DNA from: Cirrosporium novae-zelandiae
Lineage: Eukaryota
Direction of reading: 5' to 3'
NCBI GenBank assembly: GCA_026023565.1
Contig: JAPETS010000002.1
Span: forward strand, 930,001 to 994,000
DNA: 64,000 nt
The first letter of the stretch is position 1, and every line of letters starts with the position of its first letter. The notes beneath the pieces were generated by a model that saw only the letters and a program-made list of their open reading frames with translations, was not told the origin of the DNA and searched no databases. Below, in pieces: positions 4,643 through 13,200 of this stretch. The translations under genes and the position numbers were made by a program.

Positions 4643-5755
4643 TCATTGCTCCTTTTTGTCATTTGATGTATCACTGTTAGGACTCGTTGTAGGATCAACA
4701 TTTTGACCATTGTCCTCCTCCTCCTCATCGTCGTCTAAGGGAACGTCCATTACACGTTCACCTGCTTTCTCAAGAGTCCTGCAGCTCCATGTTCGAACTG
4801 CTTTGTAGACGCCCTATTCGCTGTTAGCAAAGATATCTAAGACAACAATGGTGGAAGGGTTATTCACCCATAAGAACGTTCCAACTCCAATCATAACAAC
4901 GATCCAGCTTATAGAAGCAAGCCTATCTCTTCCGTTATTCCCAACCCTTACATTACCTCCAATGACACCGGATGTCCTTAAATTCCAAAATTGCCATGGC
5001 GAGAGCGCAAGTAGTACTTTAACGAAACTCAGTAGTCCAAGCGAGGCTAGCCCTTTGACAAAATGCTCTAGCCATGATGTTTCTTCATCGGTAGTGAGAA
5101 GGGTTTCAATCTTCTGAGATACGGTGGGTTTGGAGAAGGGAAAAGAAGATATTGTGTCATAAGGATCAAGATACAAATTGATTATAGGGTCAGCAATGAA
5201 ACCGAGGAGGAAAATCGCAAGAAGAAGTATTGAAAATGTAAGTATTAATTGTGTAGCAACACTGTTGATCCATCTGCCCCATTGCATTCTTTCAAGCCGA
5301 TATCTGAACCCACATGTGGGGCATTGCCAGAAGTTTCTTCGACCATATGCTGGATCAGCATGTCTCCATTGCTGAAGGCAACCTTCGTGAACATATCTTG
5401 AGGATCCTTTGCATTTGCATGGCCTAATTAGTCTCCCAGATTCAGGGTCAGAAGACTCATACGTGACTCGAGGCTTTGATCGCAGAATTTCAGGGAGGCT
5501 ATCTGACGGCGTGTGGAAGGTTGGTTGAACTGTCTCAAGACAAATTCTGCAGGTCCTAGGACCCCATTGTTTTTGTTTAGGAGGTTGTCGTGGATGTGGC
5601 GCGTCCGACTGCGGTTCTTCCCTTCTCGCCTCTGCTGTATCTGAAAAGTTGAAGGATCCAGGAAGAGGAGGATTGTCTCTTAGGTGACGGTTGATGGTTG
5701 GAAGGACGTCCGGCCAATGCCATCCGGATGCTGTATTGAGAGTACTGGCACTCAT
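4643..5755 (-). CDS. RING-CH (RINGv/MARCH-like) membrane E3 ubiquitin ligase
   Basis: CRIC...PCKCKGSSRYVHEGCLQQW...CPTC RINGv motif followed by hydrophobic segments. One intron at ~4867-4813; last exon GVYKAVRTW...DKKEQ*. Confidence 0.88.
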
Positions 5756-6235
5756 GTTGCTGTGGCTGTTTCAAACCTCAAATTAATCATGACTTTGCAT
5801 AAAATACAATCACTGCTAAAAGCAATAGCTTTGGAGGATAGAATTATTCATCGAGGAAAGAGTTATTTAAGAATGAAGTAACCATCATTCTTATAGAGAT
5901 GACACGTTTTGATCAACCTGGAGAATCAGATTTCAAAGAAACTCATGGAGAGACGGAGACGGAGACGGATATTGGTTGAGCCGTTCCCGCTGTTTAAAAG
6001 ACCAAGTCACATGACTGATACTGTACTGTGGGCGGATTTGCGATTGTGAAAGCTCCGCTTAGACCAAGCTTCAAGTCGCGATTCGTATAGCAGCTAGCTG
6101 CCTTAAAGTCAACCATTGCCTTGCACCACAAAACTTCCTTCAGCTTACCATCTTTACTTGAGCCCTTTCAGTCTTTCAAATCCAATTCTTCTCTTTTCTC
6201 CCAAGGGCTGAGAAAGCAACTTTGAATTTGGAGCC

Positions 6236-7282
6236 ATGGCTGACCGATATTCCTTCTCTTTGACAACCTTCAATCCTAGGTAAGAATATCTTGAGAATAT
6301 ATAACTAAAGATATCTGCTGATTAGCCTAAGTGGTAAACTTGTTCAGATTGGTAATAACAAACAACACTCTCACAGAGAAATTTCTTTTACTAACCAACC
6401 CAAGAATATGCTTTGAATGCCGTCAACCAGGGCGTCACAGCTCTTGGTATTAAAGGTCAGCATTAAACTACCCTGCTATGACAGTATATCTGACCAGGGT
6501 TCAGCCACGAATGGAATTGTTCTTGCTACCGAGAAGAAATCTTCCTCCCCCCTCATCGAAAACCCTTCTCTCTCTAAAATCTCTCTCATTACCCCCAACA
6601 TTGGAATGGTCTACGCAGGCATGGGCCCAGACTATCGTGTACTTGTTGACAAAGCCCGAAAGGTGTCTCATACTGGTTACAAGCGGATATACAATGAGTA
6701 TCCTCCAACCAGGATATTGGTTCAAGATATAGCAAGAGTTGTCCAAGAAGCCACACAATCAGGTGGTGTCCGGCCATACGGTGTCAGTTTATTAATTGCT
6801 GGCTGGGATGACGGAGTAGAACCAGAAGATGAAAAAGTCAAGGAGAGCGTTTCTACAGAAGCTGAAAAAAGGAAGGCCTCAGGAAAGACTGGGGGTATTC
6901 TAAAAGGTGGCCCTAGCCTTTACCAAGTAGATCCGAGTGGAAGCTATTTCCCATGGAAGGCAACTGCGATCGGGAAGAGTGCAACCAGTGCCAAGACATT
7001 TCTTGAGAAGAGATATACAGAAGGCTTGGAGCTCGAGGATGCTATCCATATTGCTCTGTTAACTTTGAAAGAAACTATTGAGGGGGAGATGAATGGAGAG
7101 ACAGTTGAAATCGGTAAATTTGATTTCTCACCTTTGCAAAACTTATGCTGACTTTCAATATAGGCATTGTTGGACCCCCAGCAGACCATCTTTTGGGATA
7201 TGAAGGCGTTGAAGGCGCACAAGGTCCCAGGTTCCGGAAGTTGAGCAAAGAAGAGATCGAGGATTACCTTACGAATTTGTAA
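6236..7282 (+). CDS. PRE8: 20S proteasome subunit alpha type-2
   Basis: Spliced [42 protein letters not shown]..., [34 protein letters not shown]; four introns. Confidence 0.95.
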
Positions 7283-7963
7283 TGCCATAGAGATAGCCGT
7301 ATGGAGTGAATAAAGTAGACATTATCCAAGGACATCAAGTGGGAAGAGAAACCATGGTCCATCAAGGTCCGGTGTCTGGTGCTTTGGTTTATGCTCTCTT
7401 GAATTTTAGTTACGTCCTTGAACATCAGCAAATGTTGCTTCAACATGAGCCGAGGGAAAGCACTTCAGTTTCGTGGTAGCAAAGTGCAGAAAGCCTCGTA
7501 GGGGTTTCTTTCTTGAAGCCAAGACGGCAGCCCCCTGAGCAGAAACTTTGATTATTATCAAATTTCAAGAGTGCTGCTTATTGTATATCCGTCACCTACG
7601 CAAAGACTGCGAATATCCTGTCTAGTCCTTTACATCCTACTCTAGTTGCCCTCTACGCCTCCCACTGACCTTTTATATCATGATCTCCCCTGTTTCGCCT
7701 CTATAAATCAACAAAGTACATGGCACATCTACAGCCGAATTATTTAGGGGTTAAATAAATATATTACCTGAGTGACCAGCACACGAGCCGCCAGTATACA
7801 GGAAATCCTCTTGTATTAGGAACCACGTGACGGTATCTTATCTAAGGCCACAAAACTTATGTATAGTCTACGTCACACTTTCTCTTTCCATTTACAACTC
7901 CCTGCTCCAGAAGGTGACCATAACTACAGTTTCTCAGAGAACCTCAGTATCGGCTTAGTTACC

Positions 7964-8575
7964 ATGGTTTACCGACCTCTCAACTCTTTAATTACCATTA
8001 AAGCCATTCGCACTATTCGTAACGCTCGACTCTTCCATGCAGCAATTGGTACTTTCGTGGCCCTCGACTCCAGCGGGAAGCCGGTCACAAGGGAAGTCAA
8101 GCTTATTCACGGGAATGCTGGTGAATCATATATTTTGATTCCTCCGGAGATCGGCTTTGCTCTACAAGCTGGCAGCATACCATCCAATGACATATCCCTT
8201 AAGAAGGATTCGGAAAGCTATGCGTTGACGTTCTTTCATGAGACTAAGACTTTTGTACATGGTGAGTAGCCTACCTCAGACCAAATCTTGGTAATATTGC
8301 CAACTGAGCCCTTGGAGAATCATCTCCTGGCTTCCCTCGACTTGAGATCCCTCAAGACCTACCTAGGCAAACCAAAACCAACAAAAGTCCTGCCACCCTT
8401 TTTCTTACCGGTGTATCACATGAAATCACTCTAGATGGGACACCTGATGGTATCTAAAAGCTTCTCAACATAAATAGCGGACAGATTCTAATATCAAATA
8501 GCCAAATTTGCTGCAATGGCAACAGAATCATATCAAAGACTGAAACCTTCCTTGGATCGGCTGAAGGACATGTAA
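7964..8575 (+). CDS. Small hypothetical protein (~165-170 aa) with a basic, acid-free N-terminus (possible mitochondrial presequence)
   Basis: ACCATGG start. Exon 1 7964-8261 (GTGAGT donor); exon 2 from ~8309 or 8318 (non-ideal GAG acceptor) reads GFPRLEIPQDLPRQ..SPATLFLTG..ITLDGTPD; exon 3 ends LDRLKDM* at 8575. Frame stays open across the predicted splices. Confidence 0.65.
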
Positions 8576-9307
8576 TATACTTACAATAGACGGTTCCTCT
8601 ATGGCAGATTTAGAACTGCATCTCATTTTGAGGTCTCTAGACATCGTTCATTTGCTTATCCTTTTCAAATACTGGGCATTGATCATATATATTAGAGGCT
8701 GCCCATTATCCTGTATTCTCCTATTATTGATAACTCAAAGCAATACCCTTCATTCTCACACTCTCAAAGCATATATAGCCCCCAGTCCCTTGTTTCACCT
8801 GCTTTCTAAAATACATTTCAGATAAAGTCCACGCTTGACTTGAATAAGATCAGTGATGTTATTGAATTGGACTGGAGCTGGATTAGAGTTTCGCTCCGGT
8901 TAGTCTAAAGCAGTGCAATTTTTATGCTTGCAGTAGATTGCTTAATGACGGCAGTTCCTAGTTGCTGCCAAACCATGAGTCTTATAGAAACATCAATTGG
9001 CTTCACTCTCATGTACTCGTGGGGTAAAATCTCAAGTTACAGGCTGGGATACAGTGCCAGGTGTCAATAATCTAGACAAGACTATTCCAAACCCCCCAAG
9101 CCCTTGGAAGGTAATGTAGTCGACAGATAAAGAGTGCAATTGATTAAACAAACCTCTGGAAGCACTTCAATACATAGAAGGAAATAAGACCCGAACAAAG
9201 CAAAACGAACGAGCATGCACACAACACAAACCAATCGCAAAACTGAATACTTCCATCACTCTGCAACCCGCGCTAATATAGTTCAATGCCCAACGGCCTC
9301 ATCGCGA

Positions 9308-9751
9308 CTAAACGACCCCCTCGCTTAACTTAGGTACAGCGGCCACGATGCGACTATAGAATTCGGCCAGTTCCTCGACGGTACACTGATTAGTGCAGAC
9401 GGCAGCGTGGGCCGTAGCCAAGTCTGCGTTGACGGAAGCCTGAGCCAACAGTGTTTCCTGCAGTCTGTATCCATTGATCCTAAGGAACATGGCTGCTGCG
9501 ACAAGCGCTGTTCGCTTATTGCCATCCTGAAAGGCATGGTTCTTTATTATTTTTTTGGAGAGGATTGCGGCCAATGTGAAAGTATTGTCGGTTTGAGTGT
9601 AGTGGTTTACATTCATCGGTGAACTTACTGCAGACTCTAACAAGGCGGGCTGGATGGGGTGACCGCCTTCAACAACTTGGCGGGCATGGAGGTGTTGAAT
9701 TTGGTTAGCAGTCAAGAAACGAAAGGTCCGAGTAGCAGCCTTGGAGAGCAT
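9308..9751 (-). CDS. Fic/DOC family protein, Doc (death-on-curing) type
   Basis: Intronless 147-aa ORF with LLESAV..P, LAAILSKKIIKNHAFQDGNKRTALVAAAMFLRINGY, i.e. the Doc-type HxFx(D/E)(G/A)NKR motif followed by FL.xNG. Confidence 0.92.
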   Translation of the reverse strand: MLSKAATRTFRFLTANQIQHLHARQVVEGGHPIQPALLESAVSSPMNVNHYTQTDNTFTLAAILSKKIIKNHAFQDGNKRTALVAAAMFLRINGYRLQETLLAQASVNADLATAHAAVCTNQCTVEELAEFYSRIVAAVPKLSEGVV

Positions 9752-10239
9752 GGCGACTTCTTGAGTAGATATTTGAGAAGTTGTTCGTTGCTGATGAACA
9801 GGATATGTATGTAGCTAACCACGAATTTGCTCCAAAATCGTTAAGAAAAGAGACTTTTGAGTTTAGGCCTATCGGATCCTTAAGCACAAATAGACTGGCT
9901 CCCTTGCCGACCACGTCAACTTTAAATAGCCAAAATCGTAATGATTTATCCAAAACTTATAAAAGTATTCTACACAGCACCTCCTTAGACTATATCATTT
10001 AAACTATAGTTGACAACGAAATCATGGTCTTCACATTCTTTTATTACTTCTTCTAGATGCTTAGCATTCTGAGGTTTTTGCCTCGTATCTGCCCTTCTAG
10101 GATGACATACCCTATTATTCACACAACTTCCCCGCCCTTGTTGTATTCTCAGGCAGTTCTACAGCCGCCATTAAAAAATTGACTACAACTATCCCCACCA
10201 TCAATACATTGCGTGACTTATTTACTACAGTCCTTCAAG

Positions 10240-13200
10240 ATGGAGGGACAAGGTCTTCCTCAAGCTATCATCCGTCCCCGTGGATACCAGCTTGAAATGC
10301 TGGATGAAAGCATCCGACAAAACGTCATAGTAGCAATGGATACAGGCAGTGGGAAAACACAGATAGCTGTCCTTCGTATAAAAGCTGAGCTGGAACGGTG
10401 TCCCCCAAGCCAAATAGTCTGGTTTCTTGCCCCAACAGTTGTGTTAGCTACTCAACAATATGAAGTTTTCTGCTCCCAACTTCCCTCATACCAGAGCCGA
10501 GTTCTGACCGGAACGGATGGCGTTGATCGATGGGGTGAACAGCGAATCTGGGATGCCATTTTGGAGAATGTTAGAATTGTTGTGTCAACCCACCAGGTAC
10601 GGCCGTTCCCCATCTCCAAAAGGATCCAAGGATAGGTTGATTGTTTGTTCTAGGTGCTCTTAGATGCTCTCACACATGGATTTATACGAATAGAGAGGAT
10701 ATGTTTATTGGTATTTGACGAAGGTAGATGTCTTATACATCCCAAGGTTTAGATACCTGTTCTAGCTAACTAATATTAGCTCACTGCTGTACCCATAAGC
10801 ATCCTGCAAGTCTAATAATGAAACACTTTTATCATCCCAGGGTCTCCCGTGGAGAGAAAGTACCTTATATATTAGGATTGACAGCTAGTCCTGTCATTAA
10901 CGCAAAAGCGGGCGAATTGCAGTGGGTCTATGCCTGGTTGCGTGTCGTATTTCGACTGAATATTTTTCAGGAAACTAGAAGAAAGCCTTGATGCAACTGC
11001 TAAAACACCTAGACAGAATCGGCAGGAATTGCTAAAATATGTGTACCCTCCCGTGCTATCCAAAGTATCGTTTCGAACAGATACCGCAGATCATTCTTTC
11101 GTTCTCGGGCAGCTCATCCAAGTCTTTCAGAACCTGGAAATATCTGAAGACCCCTATGTGAAATTGTTGCTCAAGGGCCGTGATGAAAAAAGCGTAAAAC
11201 TACTTTCAAAGGCTCTTAATACTAGGAAAACATTCTGTCAAGATTCATTCAAACGCCTCTGCCAAAGAAGTATACATATTCACGAAGAACTTGGACGATG
11301 GACCTCGGATTGTTTTATTAAGTCGTGTATCGAGCAATTCCAGAAATGCAATGGAGGAGCATCCGACCCATTAATTGACTGGGATCATAGAGAGAAATCC
11401 TATCTACTCAGAAAGCTCAACTCGATTCCTATATCGTCGGTGAATGAAAAATTTGACGAAACAGACATAAGTCTGATAGCCCCGAAAGCCGAGAGTCTAA
11501 TTGATCTTCTCGTCAGAGAACACAAATCCTCCTTTACAGGAATCATTTTCGTGAAACAGAGAGCCACAGTAGCGATGCTAGCAAAGCTTCTCTCCGTACA
11601 TCCCCAGACTAAGGACAGATTTTCCATCAGAACCTTTATAGGAAATCAGAGCAGGAAACCTGACATCTTTGAACTCTTGGCTATCAAAGATCAGAACGAC
11701 GCGCTCGACGATTTGCGCACAGGTAAAGCAAACCTTGTCATTTCTACGAGTGTCCTCGAGGAAGGGATTGATATCTCTGCCTGCAATATTGTGATCTGTT
11801 TCGAATTACCACCGCACTTGAAGTCATTCATTCAACGCCGTGGGAGGGCAAGAAAAGAAGAATCCAAATATATACTGATGCTTCCAGAAGACGACATGTT
11901 TGTGCGCGTGGAGAAATGGGAGGAGTTAGAAGAGCAAATGAAAGTCATCTATATGAATGAAAGGCGTAAATTCGAGAAATTAAGGGAGCTCGAAGCAATG
12001 GACGAGGATTGTAAACAAGTTCTTAGTATCGAAAAAACAGGCGCAATTCTAACATTCGATAACGTCATCTCTCACTTGAACCATTTTTGTGCCACTTTAC
12101 CTGGTGATGCATATATGGATCGTCGTCCAGAATATGAATTCCGCGGATTTGAGTCGGGAAAGTTCATCTCAGCAAAGGTGACTCTTCCAAGCGCAGTTGA
12201 CTCCGCTCTTCGAGAGCATTGTGGTACTTCCAAGTGGCGCACCGAAAAAACAGCTGCGCGGGACGCTGCATTCCAAGCATATCTGGCTCTTTATAAAGCT
12301 GGACTTGTTAATGATAATATGTTACCTCTATCTGAACCTGCATTGAAATTTTCGGAATCTCAAGTTGAAAAGCGAGCAGCAATTGTGGAAGTAAATTGCC
12401 CTTTGAACCCATGGGTGGAATTGATCCAGCAATGGAACAGCCATGAAACATTTTGCGCAATTACAATAGATACTGGTGGATTTCTTCCCAAGATGGTCAT
12501 GCTTCTCCCTGGTCGGGTTCCTATCCTGCCACCCTTGACTGTACATTGGGATACGACGAAGAAGTTCAACGTTTCGTTTCTTGAGGTCGGCGATTGTCAG
12601 CAATACTCATCTCACTTTGAAGTGGCAACCTTAATTACGCAAACTCTACTTCTGTCGTTCTTTAGAGCTAAACTATTAGATTCGAAGCTTGATTTTCTGG
12701 CTCTTTTTATCCCCGCGACTGATATCGAGTACCTCGAAAGTTGGCATCGTTCCGTAGAGGGGAAAATCTCAGGGCGGGAAGCCCTGGCGATGAGTCATGG
12801 CGTTGGATCTTTCCCCTACGGTCTTCTACGAGATTTGACGAGCGGGTTAACGTCTCCTGGATATATCCACAAGAATGTTGCCTTAAAGCTGCCTAAATCT
12901 AGTCGGAATCCAAAAAAGCTGTCAGAAGAATCAGGGGAAATATCTCCCGTAGATCCCCAGGAGGAACTCTGCTTCGAGGCTTTGAGATATCCTAAACGAA
13001 TGGATTTCTTGCATGAGATCCCATCGTCCAATATTGACTCGAAAAACCCTAACGTCGATTTAGCTGTAGCGAACTGTGTCTTTGAGAAGCTACCCTTGCC
13101 CTATGTACAATTCACTACTTTGATACCTTCTATTATCCACCACATTGAAACCCATCTAATCGCTTGGATTTTGACAGAGTCTCTATTAGCACCGGTGGGC

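Follow-up and report, generated by a model that had tools for sequence, protein, structure and literature searches.

A Doc-family gene and its convergent neighbour in the fungus Cirrosporium novae-zelandiae

We analysed a stretch of 64,000 nucleotides from Cirrosporium novae-zelandiae (contig JAPETS010000002.1, positions 930,001 to 994,000), hereafter the window, in which two small genes lie tail to tail at 7964..9751. One, on the minus strand (9308-9751), encodes a protein of the Doc family, named after the toxin of the bacterial Phd-Doc modules; the other, on the plus strand (7964-8575), encodes a protein that we call X. We found linkage of Doc and X in at least three deep lineages of fungi and in three arrangements (convergent, Doc-X and X-Doc), and we consider a functional coupling of the two proteins fairly probable. 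As far as the literature searched reaches, the link of Doc to the X family is new. The first-pass annotation of this DNA had suggested a toxin-antidote module for the pair. Its observations were confirmed at every point checked, including the spacing of about 730 bp between the genes (732 nt between the facing stop codons, 8576-9307), and its interpretation is partly supported.

The Doc protein and the X family

By its sequence, the product of the minus-strand gene is a true member of the Doc family, which has the Fic fold. It matches the Pfam family Fic (PF02661) with an E value of 2.5e-14 and 54.3 bits (cut-off 24), the NCBIfam model TIGR01550 (DOC_P1, death-on-curing family toxin) with 59.8 bits (cut-off 38.65) and phrog_577, a 'Doc-like toxin' in PHROGs, with an E value of 1.7e-22. 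The profile of the Doc family matches the solved Docs 9vzc, 3k33, 3dd7 and 3kh2 over chain residues 1-126, with E values of 3.5e-17 to 7.8e-15. In addition to this whole-domain homology, the window Doc carries the Doc-type active-site motif H-x-F-x-[DN]-[AG]-N-K-R, in which K replaces the G of Fic (as in the accessible part of PMC2686095). Across 120 aligned Docs, residues H72, D76, N78, K79 and R80 do not vary. Every invariant catalytic residue is thus kept, and kinase activity is predicted. The protein is probably of bacterial ancestry.

A tree was calculated for 119 Doc rows, after three rows under 95 aa had been dropped; the labels fungal and bacterial-like were set by match rank. The 64 fungal rows together with P0065 formed a group separate from the remaining 54 bacterial-like rows (Shimodaira-Hasegawa-like support 99), and the window Doc lies within this single fungal clade, to which the fungal database entries named 'DOC family protein' belong. 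It is 45-73% identical to the rows ranked 2-64, which were taken as fungal and among which 23 species are named. The named Doc-bearing species span Dothideomycetes, Eurotiomycetes, Sordariomycetes and lichen-forming groups. P0065, labelled bacterial-like by its match rank, groups with the fungal clade. P0065 (155 aa) and P0036 (153 aa) come from the same source and both list a longest contig of 3589 nt; perhaps this contig carries two Doc paralogues.

Fungal Docs differ from the bacterial-like ones at the N-terminus. The first acidic residue is found at a median position of 35 in 48 fungal Docs versus 7 in 47 bacterial-like Docs, and the first 30 residues hold a mean of 0.33 D+E versus 3.32. 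This initial part is also richer in R/K and S/T in fungal Docs. As far as these compositions tell, the N-terminus of Doc was apparently reshaped once the gene had entered fungi. The accessible part of Kinch et al. (2009; PMC2686095) mentions fic/doc sequences in 'a few fungi'. We found no paper on the function, target or partner of a fungal Doc in the literature searched, where these proteins are annotated but unstudied. Likewise, no paper was found there for the locus tags of the X family, and the part of PMC11898892 that was accessible does not mention Doc or Fic.

X is a real gene with three exons, and its spliced translation is identical, letter for letter, to the 167-aa database protein P0121, a hypothetical protein which one source assigns to the Cirrosporium novae-zelandiae genome (class Xylobotryomycetes). 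Exon 1 begins MVYRPLNS and holds the conserved blocks G-x-x-G-E-S-Y-I-L-I-P-P-E-I-G and L-T-F-F-H-E-T. A metagenome scan yielded two short loci only, L001 and L002, which are short contigs of close relatives. When the whole gene was aligned with both, identity was 80-91% in exons, 66-77% in introns and 50-54% in the 5′ flank; exon 1 is 80% identical to L001 versus 68% in intron 1. The coding differences lie mostly at third codon positions. The ratio of nonsynonymous to synonymous substitution rates (dN/dS) is 0.29 (167 codons) and 0.27 (163 codons) against the two relatives, and the gene is therefore under purifying selection.

Six proteins of the X family were retrieved by a word-based search with exon 1, and their alignment, used in HMMER, extended the family to 172 clusters at E ≤ 1e-3, 40 of them at E ≤ 1e-10. 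When 150 members served as queries in a further word-based search, 44 X proteins were listed from 25 named species, all of them Pezizomycotina, including Cadophora, Rhynchosporium, Venustampulla, Blastomyces, Histoplasma, Emergomyces, Xylaria, Nemania, Colletotrichum, Fusarium, Peltigera and Trizodia. Many members share a leader that ends in R-x-F-H, the motifs GDPGE[AS]Y.., LTFFH[DE]T.HF, [FY]PRL.IPQDLPRQ, SPATL and LDGT.D, and a C-terminal helix that ends in L..LKD. Two X paralogues (P0280 and P0282) occur on different contigs of Venustampulla echinocandica, for which no Doc is listed. In bacterial and archaeal genomes, a search with one peptide pattern and a 13-sequence alignment gave 47 pattern matches and no relatives, which fits a fungus-specific family.

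The AlphaFold model of X, based on a 150-sequence alignment, reached a predicted local distance difference test (pLDDT) value of 89.1 and a predicted template modelling (pTM) score of 0.80; an earlier model with only 6 aligned sequences (pLDDT 33) was left unused. Confidence is low only at residues ~1-23/24. The remainder is confidently predicted as an alpha/beta fold, with an antiparallel sheet, one short helix and a long C-terminal helix of 24 residues (142-165). Foldseek found no match to the model in the PDB at E ≤ 0.001. In an exhaustive comparison with VIA-align wide the best Z was 4.2, for a GntR-family chain (3l5z), and none of 48161 chains reached Z ≥ 5. No known fold was thus recognised, which does not by itself prove that the fold is novel.

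At the sequence level, the X profile gave no PDB match at E ≤ 10, the ESM Atlas no usable match, and PADLOC and PHROGs no family. X did not match PhdYeFM even at E ≤ 10. A Pfam scan left 38 of 40 X members without a match, and the other two match unrelated families outside the X domain. The only curated family to score at all was AtaL/DUF1857 (PF08982), of which positions 27-104 weakly match X residues 16-96 (E 0.004-0.006). The score of 16.8-17.3 bits is under the gathering cut-off of 27, none of four close homologues and none of 40 family members match PF08982, and X is not filed there. An AtaL-type fold was absent among the best 50 structure-search matches. With a confident model that has no curated family or PDB fold match, X is a worthwhile structural target.

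Linkage and distribution of Doc and X

The convergent arrangement of the window is kept in L001, where X is followed, about 360 nt downstream on the opposite strand, by the last 45 codons of a Doc gene that is 91% identical to P0002. The lengths of the longest contigs were then compared between the Doc and X tables, and equal lengths are listed for 4 of the 44 X rows. These are the window's own pair (1477223 nt), P0002/P0122 (23317 nt), P0003/P0278 (85012 nt) and the Trizodia pair P0038/P0131 (249672 nt), with the locus tags 002843 and 002846. All four rows fall within the X clade of the window, and shared contigs alone could reflect plain synteny. In Trizodia, the annotation merges X (P0131, 298 aa) with a sequence on its N-terminal side that resembles Aim19 (20.7 bits in Pfam, under the cut-off), and the upstream neighbour of X is therefore a different one there than in the window.

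Two of 154 X-family members, P0271 and P0253, also carry the Doc motif. In P0271 (255 aa), Doc occupies residues 1-~105 and is in frame with X (111-255), which extends from just past the leader to the end; the protein scores E 6e-12 against Fic and E 1e-51 against the X profile. P0253 (305 aa) starts with X (6-166), followed by a Pro/Arg/His-rich linker and then the C-terminal half of Doc. Their X parts are 41% and 35% identical to the window X and sit in X clades far from that of the window. The Doc parts, too, belong to other Doc subclades, beside a Penicillium Doc and among Cordyceps, Xylariaceae and Fusarium rows. Whether P0271 and P0253 are genuine fusions or annotation models that merge tandem genes, they show that two further genomes carry Doc and X on the same strand, in one order in P0271 and in the reverse order in P0253.

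In the X tree, the rows linked to Doc are spread over at least three clades. With 59 rows, the approximately unbiased (AU) test rejected monophyly of the 5 linked ones (p = 2.9e-10), a group chosen after inspection of a first tree. A linkage that recurs in at least three lineages and in three arrangements is otherwise hard to explain, and it argues for selection for linkage. The linked two-gene cassette of the first-pass annotation stands in so far as the linkage extends beyond this genome, through L001, the shared contigs and the two-domain proteins; X, however, is not confined to a Doc-bearing cassette.

The suggested co-distribution of the two genes is not supported by the named species. 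X belongs to a broad family in Pezizomycotina, most named members of which occur in species where no Doc was matched. Doc detection should be sensitive among the X-bearing species, since the motif is invariant and the rows taken as fungal (ranks 1-64) outrank the bacterial-like ones. Cirrosporium and Trizodia are the only named species with both proteins, and P0041 may add a third. Because X mostly occurs without Doc, it has some function independent of Doc, and the latter appears to be an accessory that is often lost.

Possible roles of the pair

Next, we considered where the two proteins may act. Residues 1-24 of X contain five R/K and no D/E, and they form the sole part of the model with low confidence. 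Among the X leaders, of which 96 of 184 were scorable, the median length is 25 aa with a mean of 5.2 R+K, and 78% lack D/E; the conserved R-x-F-H closes the leader. Presequences for the mitochondrial matrix are rich in R/K and S/T, free of D/E and able to form an amphipathic helix, with a site of the R-2/R-3 type at the end. The composition of the X leader fits this description, and the presequence-like start seen in the first-pass annotation was recovered. The proposal that both proteins go to the same compartment agrees, on composition only, with the basic and acid-free N-termini of both. Elongation factor Tu (EF-Tu) is a known target of Doc, and to our knowledge the only bacterial-type EF-Tu of the cell sits in the mitochondrial matrix. 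Because of the basic, acid-free N-termini, which bacterial Docs do not share, and the location of EF-Tu, the mitochondrion is the likely site of action of Doc and X.

Based on these observations, we propose that the locus is a two-gene module of a Doc kinase of bacterial ancestry and the putatively fungus-specific X, the linkage of which would be maintained since the products act together. X would bind Doc and restrain or regulate it, and so fill the role of Phd without kinship to Phd. Unless checked by X, Doc would phosphorylate the mitochondrial EF-Tu, and translation in the organelle would slow down. Because many fungi have X but no Doc, X probably acts in mitochondria in its own right and was recruited as the partner of Doc. 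That X acts as a Phd-like restraint on Doc in mitochondria is a tentative reading, to which we give somewhat less than an even chance. Structure prediction of a complex of Doc with X residues 24-167 scored 0.82, 0.81 and 0.82 versus 0.67 for one control with an unrelated partner, and weighs neither way.

The window pair can be compared with the Phd-Doc type II toxin-antitoxin system of phage P1 and bacteria (TIGR01550, PF02661; 3k33, 3dd7, 3kh2). Both have a true Doc, here with an intact H-x-F-x-D-G-N-K-R, and a small, genetically linked partner gene. The window pair differs in that it is eukaryotic, forms no operon and has no Phd- or YefM-like gene upstream. In contrast to Phd, X is convergent with doc, has two introns and a presequence-like leader, is twice the size of Phd, and has an unrelated and unmatched alpha/beta fold; its family is, moreover, widespread without Doc. 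The idea of a poison and an antidote at one fungal locus is shared with wtf and Spok, the fungal toxin-antidote selfish genes, which are single genes or overlapping transcripts without ancestry in bacterial toxin-antitoxin systems. Unlike these, X is conserved, vertically distributed and mostly free of Doc, and nothing at the Doc-X locus bears on meiotic drive.

Several observations weigh against a Doc-X module. No Doc was found for 22-23 of the 25 named X-bearing species. In the possible third species with both proteins, P0041 (Doc) has the AJ78 prefix of Emergomyces pasteurianus, whose X is P0284, while it is labelled Neofusicoccum parvum; if it does belong to Emergomyces pasteurianus, Doc and X are on different contigs (208212 vs 44638). 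Conversely, the other 22 named Doc-bearing species are not in the X table, which came from a word-limited search (44 proteins vs 172 clusters). This absence of X counts for little because the search was limited and X, a small gene of three exons, is easily missed in annotation. The Doc and X genes of Trizodia are not adjacent but three locus tags apart, with two genes between them. P0271 and P0253 are known as proteins only and might result from merged gene models; of Doc, P0253 has the C-terminal half only. Fungal Docs have 6-11 residues ahead of the first helix, which leaves no room for a classical cleavable presequence. Finally, a conserved C-terminal tail has been lost from the window Doc.

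A rival explanation is that there is no functional tie at all. Doc would then be a domesticated stand-alone enzyme, which may be tolerated since its bacterial-type target is absent from the cytosol, and X an unrelated mitochondrial protein; their proximity would be inherited microsynteny plus a few merged models. The rarity of Doc among X-bearing species speaks for this view, as do the confinement of all four contig-sharing cases to one X clade, the absence of flanking repeats that would mark a mobile cassette, and Trizodia, with its intervening genes and a merged X neighbour that is Aim19-like rather than the proteasome gene. It does not account well for two polypeptides that join Doc and X in opposite orders and come from distant clades of both families, since, among the few X records with additional domains, a random neighbour would very rarely be Doc twice, or for proximity that persists while orientation differs in three lineages. 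We therefore regard the absence of any tie as rather unlikely.

An antidote role of X is plausible but unproven, and a live rival is that X, rather than inhibiting Doc, serves it as a substrate, an adaptor or a partner in a pathway. In that case X would be phosphorylated by Doc, or would bring Doc to its target, for the regulation of a mitochondrial process in which X acts alone in fungi without Doc. The linkage would be expected equally under this explanation, and the broad conservation of X without Doc, under purifying selection, suits a protein that has an independent function; invariant hydroxyl residues (S123, T126 and the LDG-T motif) lie in the best conserved block. We nevertheless consider it improbable, as enzyme-substrate pairs rarely stay adjacent in eukaryotic genomes and X, with no Pfam, PDB, PADLOC or PHROG match, shows no likeness to EF-Tu or another known Fic/Doc target.

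A further explanation makes X incidental or secondary. Many fungal Docs share a C-terminal tail (..EWTPEI..YRNEATEY) beyond the portion matched to the solved bacterial Docs, in which it is absent, and the fungal enzyme might be checked in cis by this extension; most named Doc-bearing species have no X match, which suits the idea. The window Doc stops 9-10 residues before its closest relatives (P0002, P0004 and L001, which end ..QYRNEA.EY), and P0003 and P0005 also lack the tail. These tail-less Docs are the ones that sit with X, so that tail and X could instead be alternative solutions. The tail also lacks the inhibitory motif [ST]xxxE[GN], and we find cis-inhibition very unlikely.

Toxin-antitoxin modules are regarded as a prokaryotic invention. 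A Doc that keeps its catalytic residues in several fungal classes and recurs beside or fused to X offers a testable handle on the fate of a bacterial toxin in a eukaryote and on how it is kept harmless or used, and the mitochondrial reading, if true, would mean a new mode of regulating organellar translation. In its fullest form, our proposal would be that filamentous ascomycetes captured a bacterial Doc, added a targeting-competent N-terminus and replaced Phd with a fungus-born X of unseen fold, and that the pair, remaining linked and in some cases fused in different classes of Pezizomycotina, gates mitochondrial translation through EF-Tu phosphorylation as a mitochondrion-directed toxin-antidote or kinase-regulator pair. 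We offer this complete scenario as a conjecture that is unlikely to hold in all of its parts.

Layout of the locus

The features of the locus are listed in Table 1.

Table 1. Features of the Doc and X genes, in window coordinates
Feature	Position	Strand	Basis and remarks
X exon 1	7964..8261	+	Residues 1-99 and first base of codon 100; open reading frame (ORF), homologues, joins checked against P0121
X residues 1-24, presequence-like	7964-8035	+	Within exon 1
X intron 1	8262..8317	+	56 nt, GTGAGT...AG; donor kept; unspliced ORFs of relatives continue as HGKQP
X exon 2	8318..8449	+	FPRLEIPQDLPRQ...SPATLFLTGVSHEITLDGTPD; best conserved part of the X family; DNA identity 90% (L001) and 91% (L002)
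X intron 2	8450..8501	+	52 nt, GTATCT...AG; splice sites
X exon 3 with stop	8502..8575	+	C-terminal helix ...RLKPSLDRLKDM; helix 142-165 in model; conserved L..LKD ending
Spacer between stop codons	8576..9307	.	732 nt; probably both 3′ untranslated regions (UTRs); equivalent in L001 ~360 nt
Decayed remnant of Doc C-terminal tail	9270..9310	-	Alignment: TAG where L001 has CAG, then 2-nt deletion
Doc-family gene	9308..9751	-	147 aa, single exon, intronless; ATG ORF; PF02661, TIGR01550, phrog_577
Doc catalytic motif HAFQDGNKR	9512..9538	-	Residues 72-80; read from sequence

The left flank of the pair is a proteasome alpha gene with a Proteasome domain (Pfam), and the right flank a dicer-like gene with DEAD, Helicase_C and Dicer_dimer domains and two RNase III domains. 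Besides X and doc, the interval from the proteasome to the dicer gene contains short ORFs only (ATG ORFs of at least 50 aa). Two small ones were scanned, at 8601-8825, the one ORF of at least 50 aa in the spacer, and at 9805-10002, and neither has a Pfam match. As the first-pass annotation had noted, there is no Phd-like ORF upstream of doc; the minus strand of 9752-10239 has no ATG ORF of at least 30 aa. The flanks show only repeat matches of a size expected by chance (15-19 nt), and the window has no second copy of X or doc. No RNA data set was listed among those that contain this stretch. The spacer is ~370 nt longer than in L001, and the stretch right after the X stop codon is conserved among three relatives and is probably 3′ UTR.

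We also compared positions 5800-12500, at 80% likeness, with contigs of runs X2 and X3, which represent two further organisms sequenced in the same study; only short pieces matched. They cover the proteasome gene, the Doc core (9451-9555), 36 nt of X exon 3 and a piece of the dicer gene, and no contig bridges genes. The catalytic core of Doc is matched at 80-90% identity, which indicates that Doc-like genes are present in those organisms too. In run X3, the contig with the Doc core and that with the proteasome gene are equal in depth. Outside the finding, an ordinary neighbour at 4814-5755 on the minus strand is an ORF of 313 aa whose product has a RING-variant (RINGv) domain (E 8.8e-10) and, towards the C-terminus, hydrophobic stretches.

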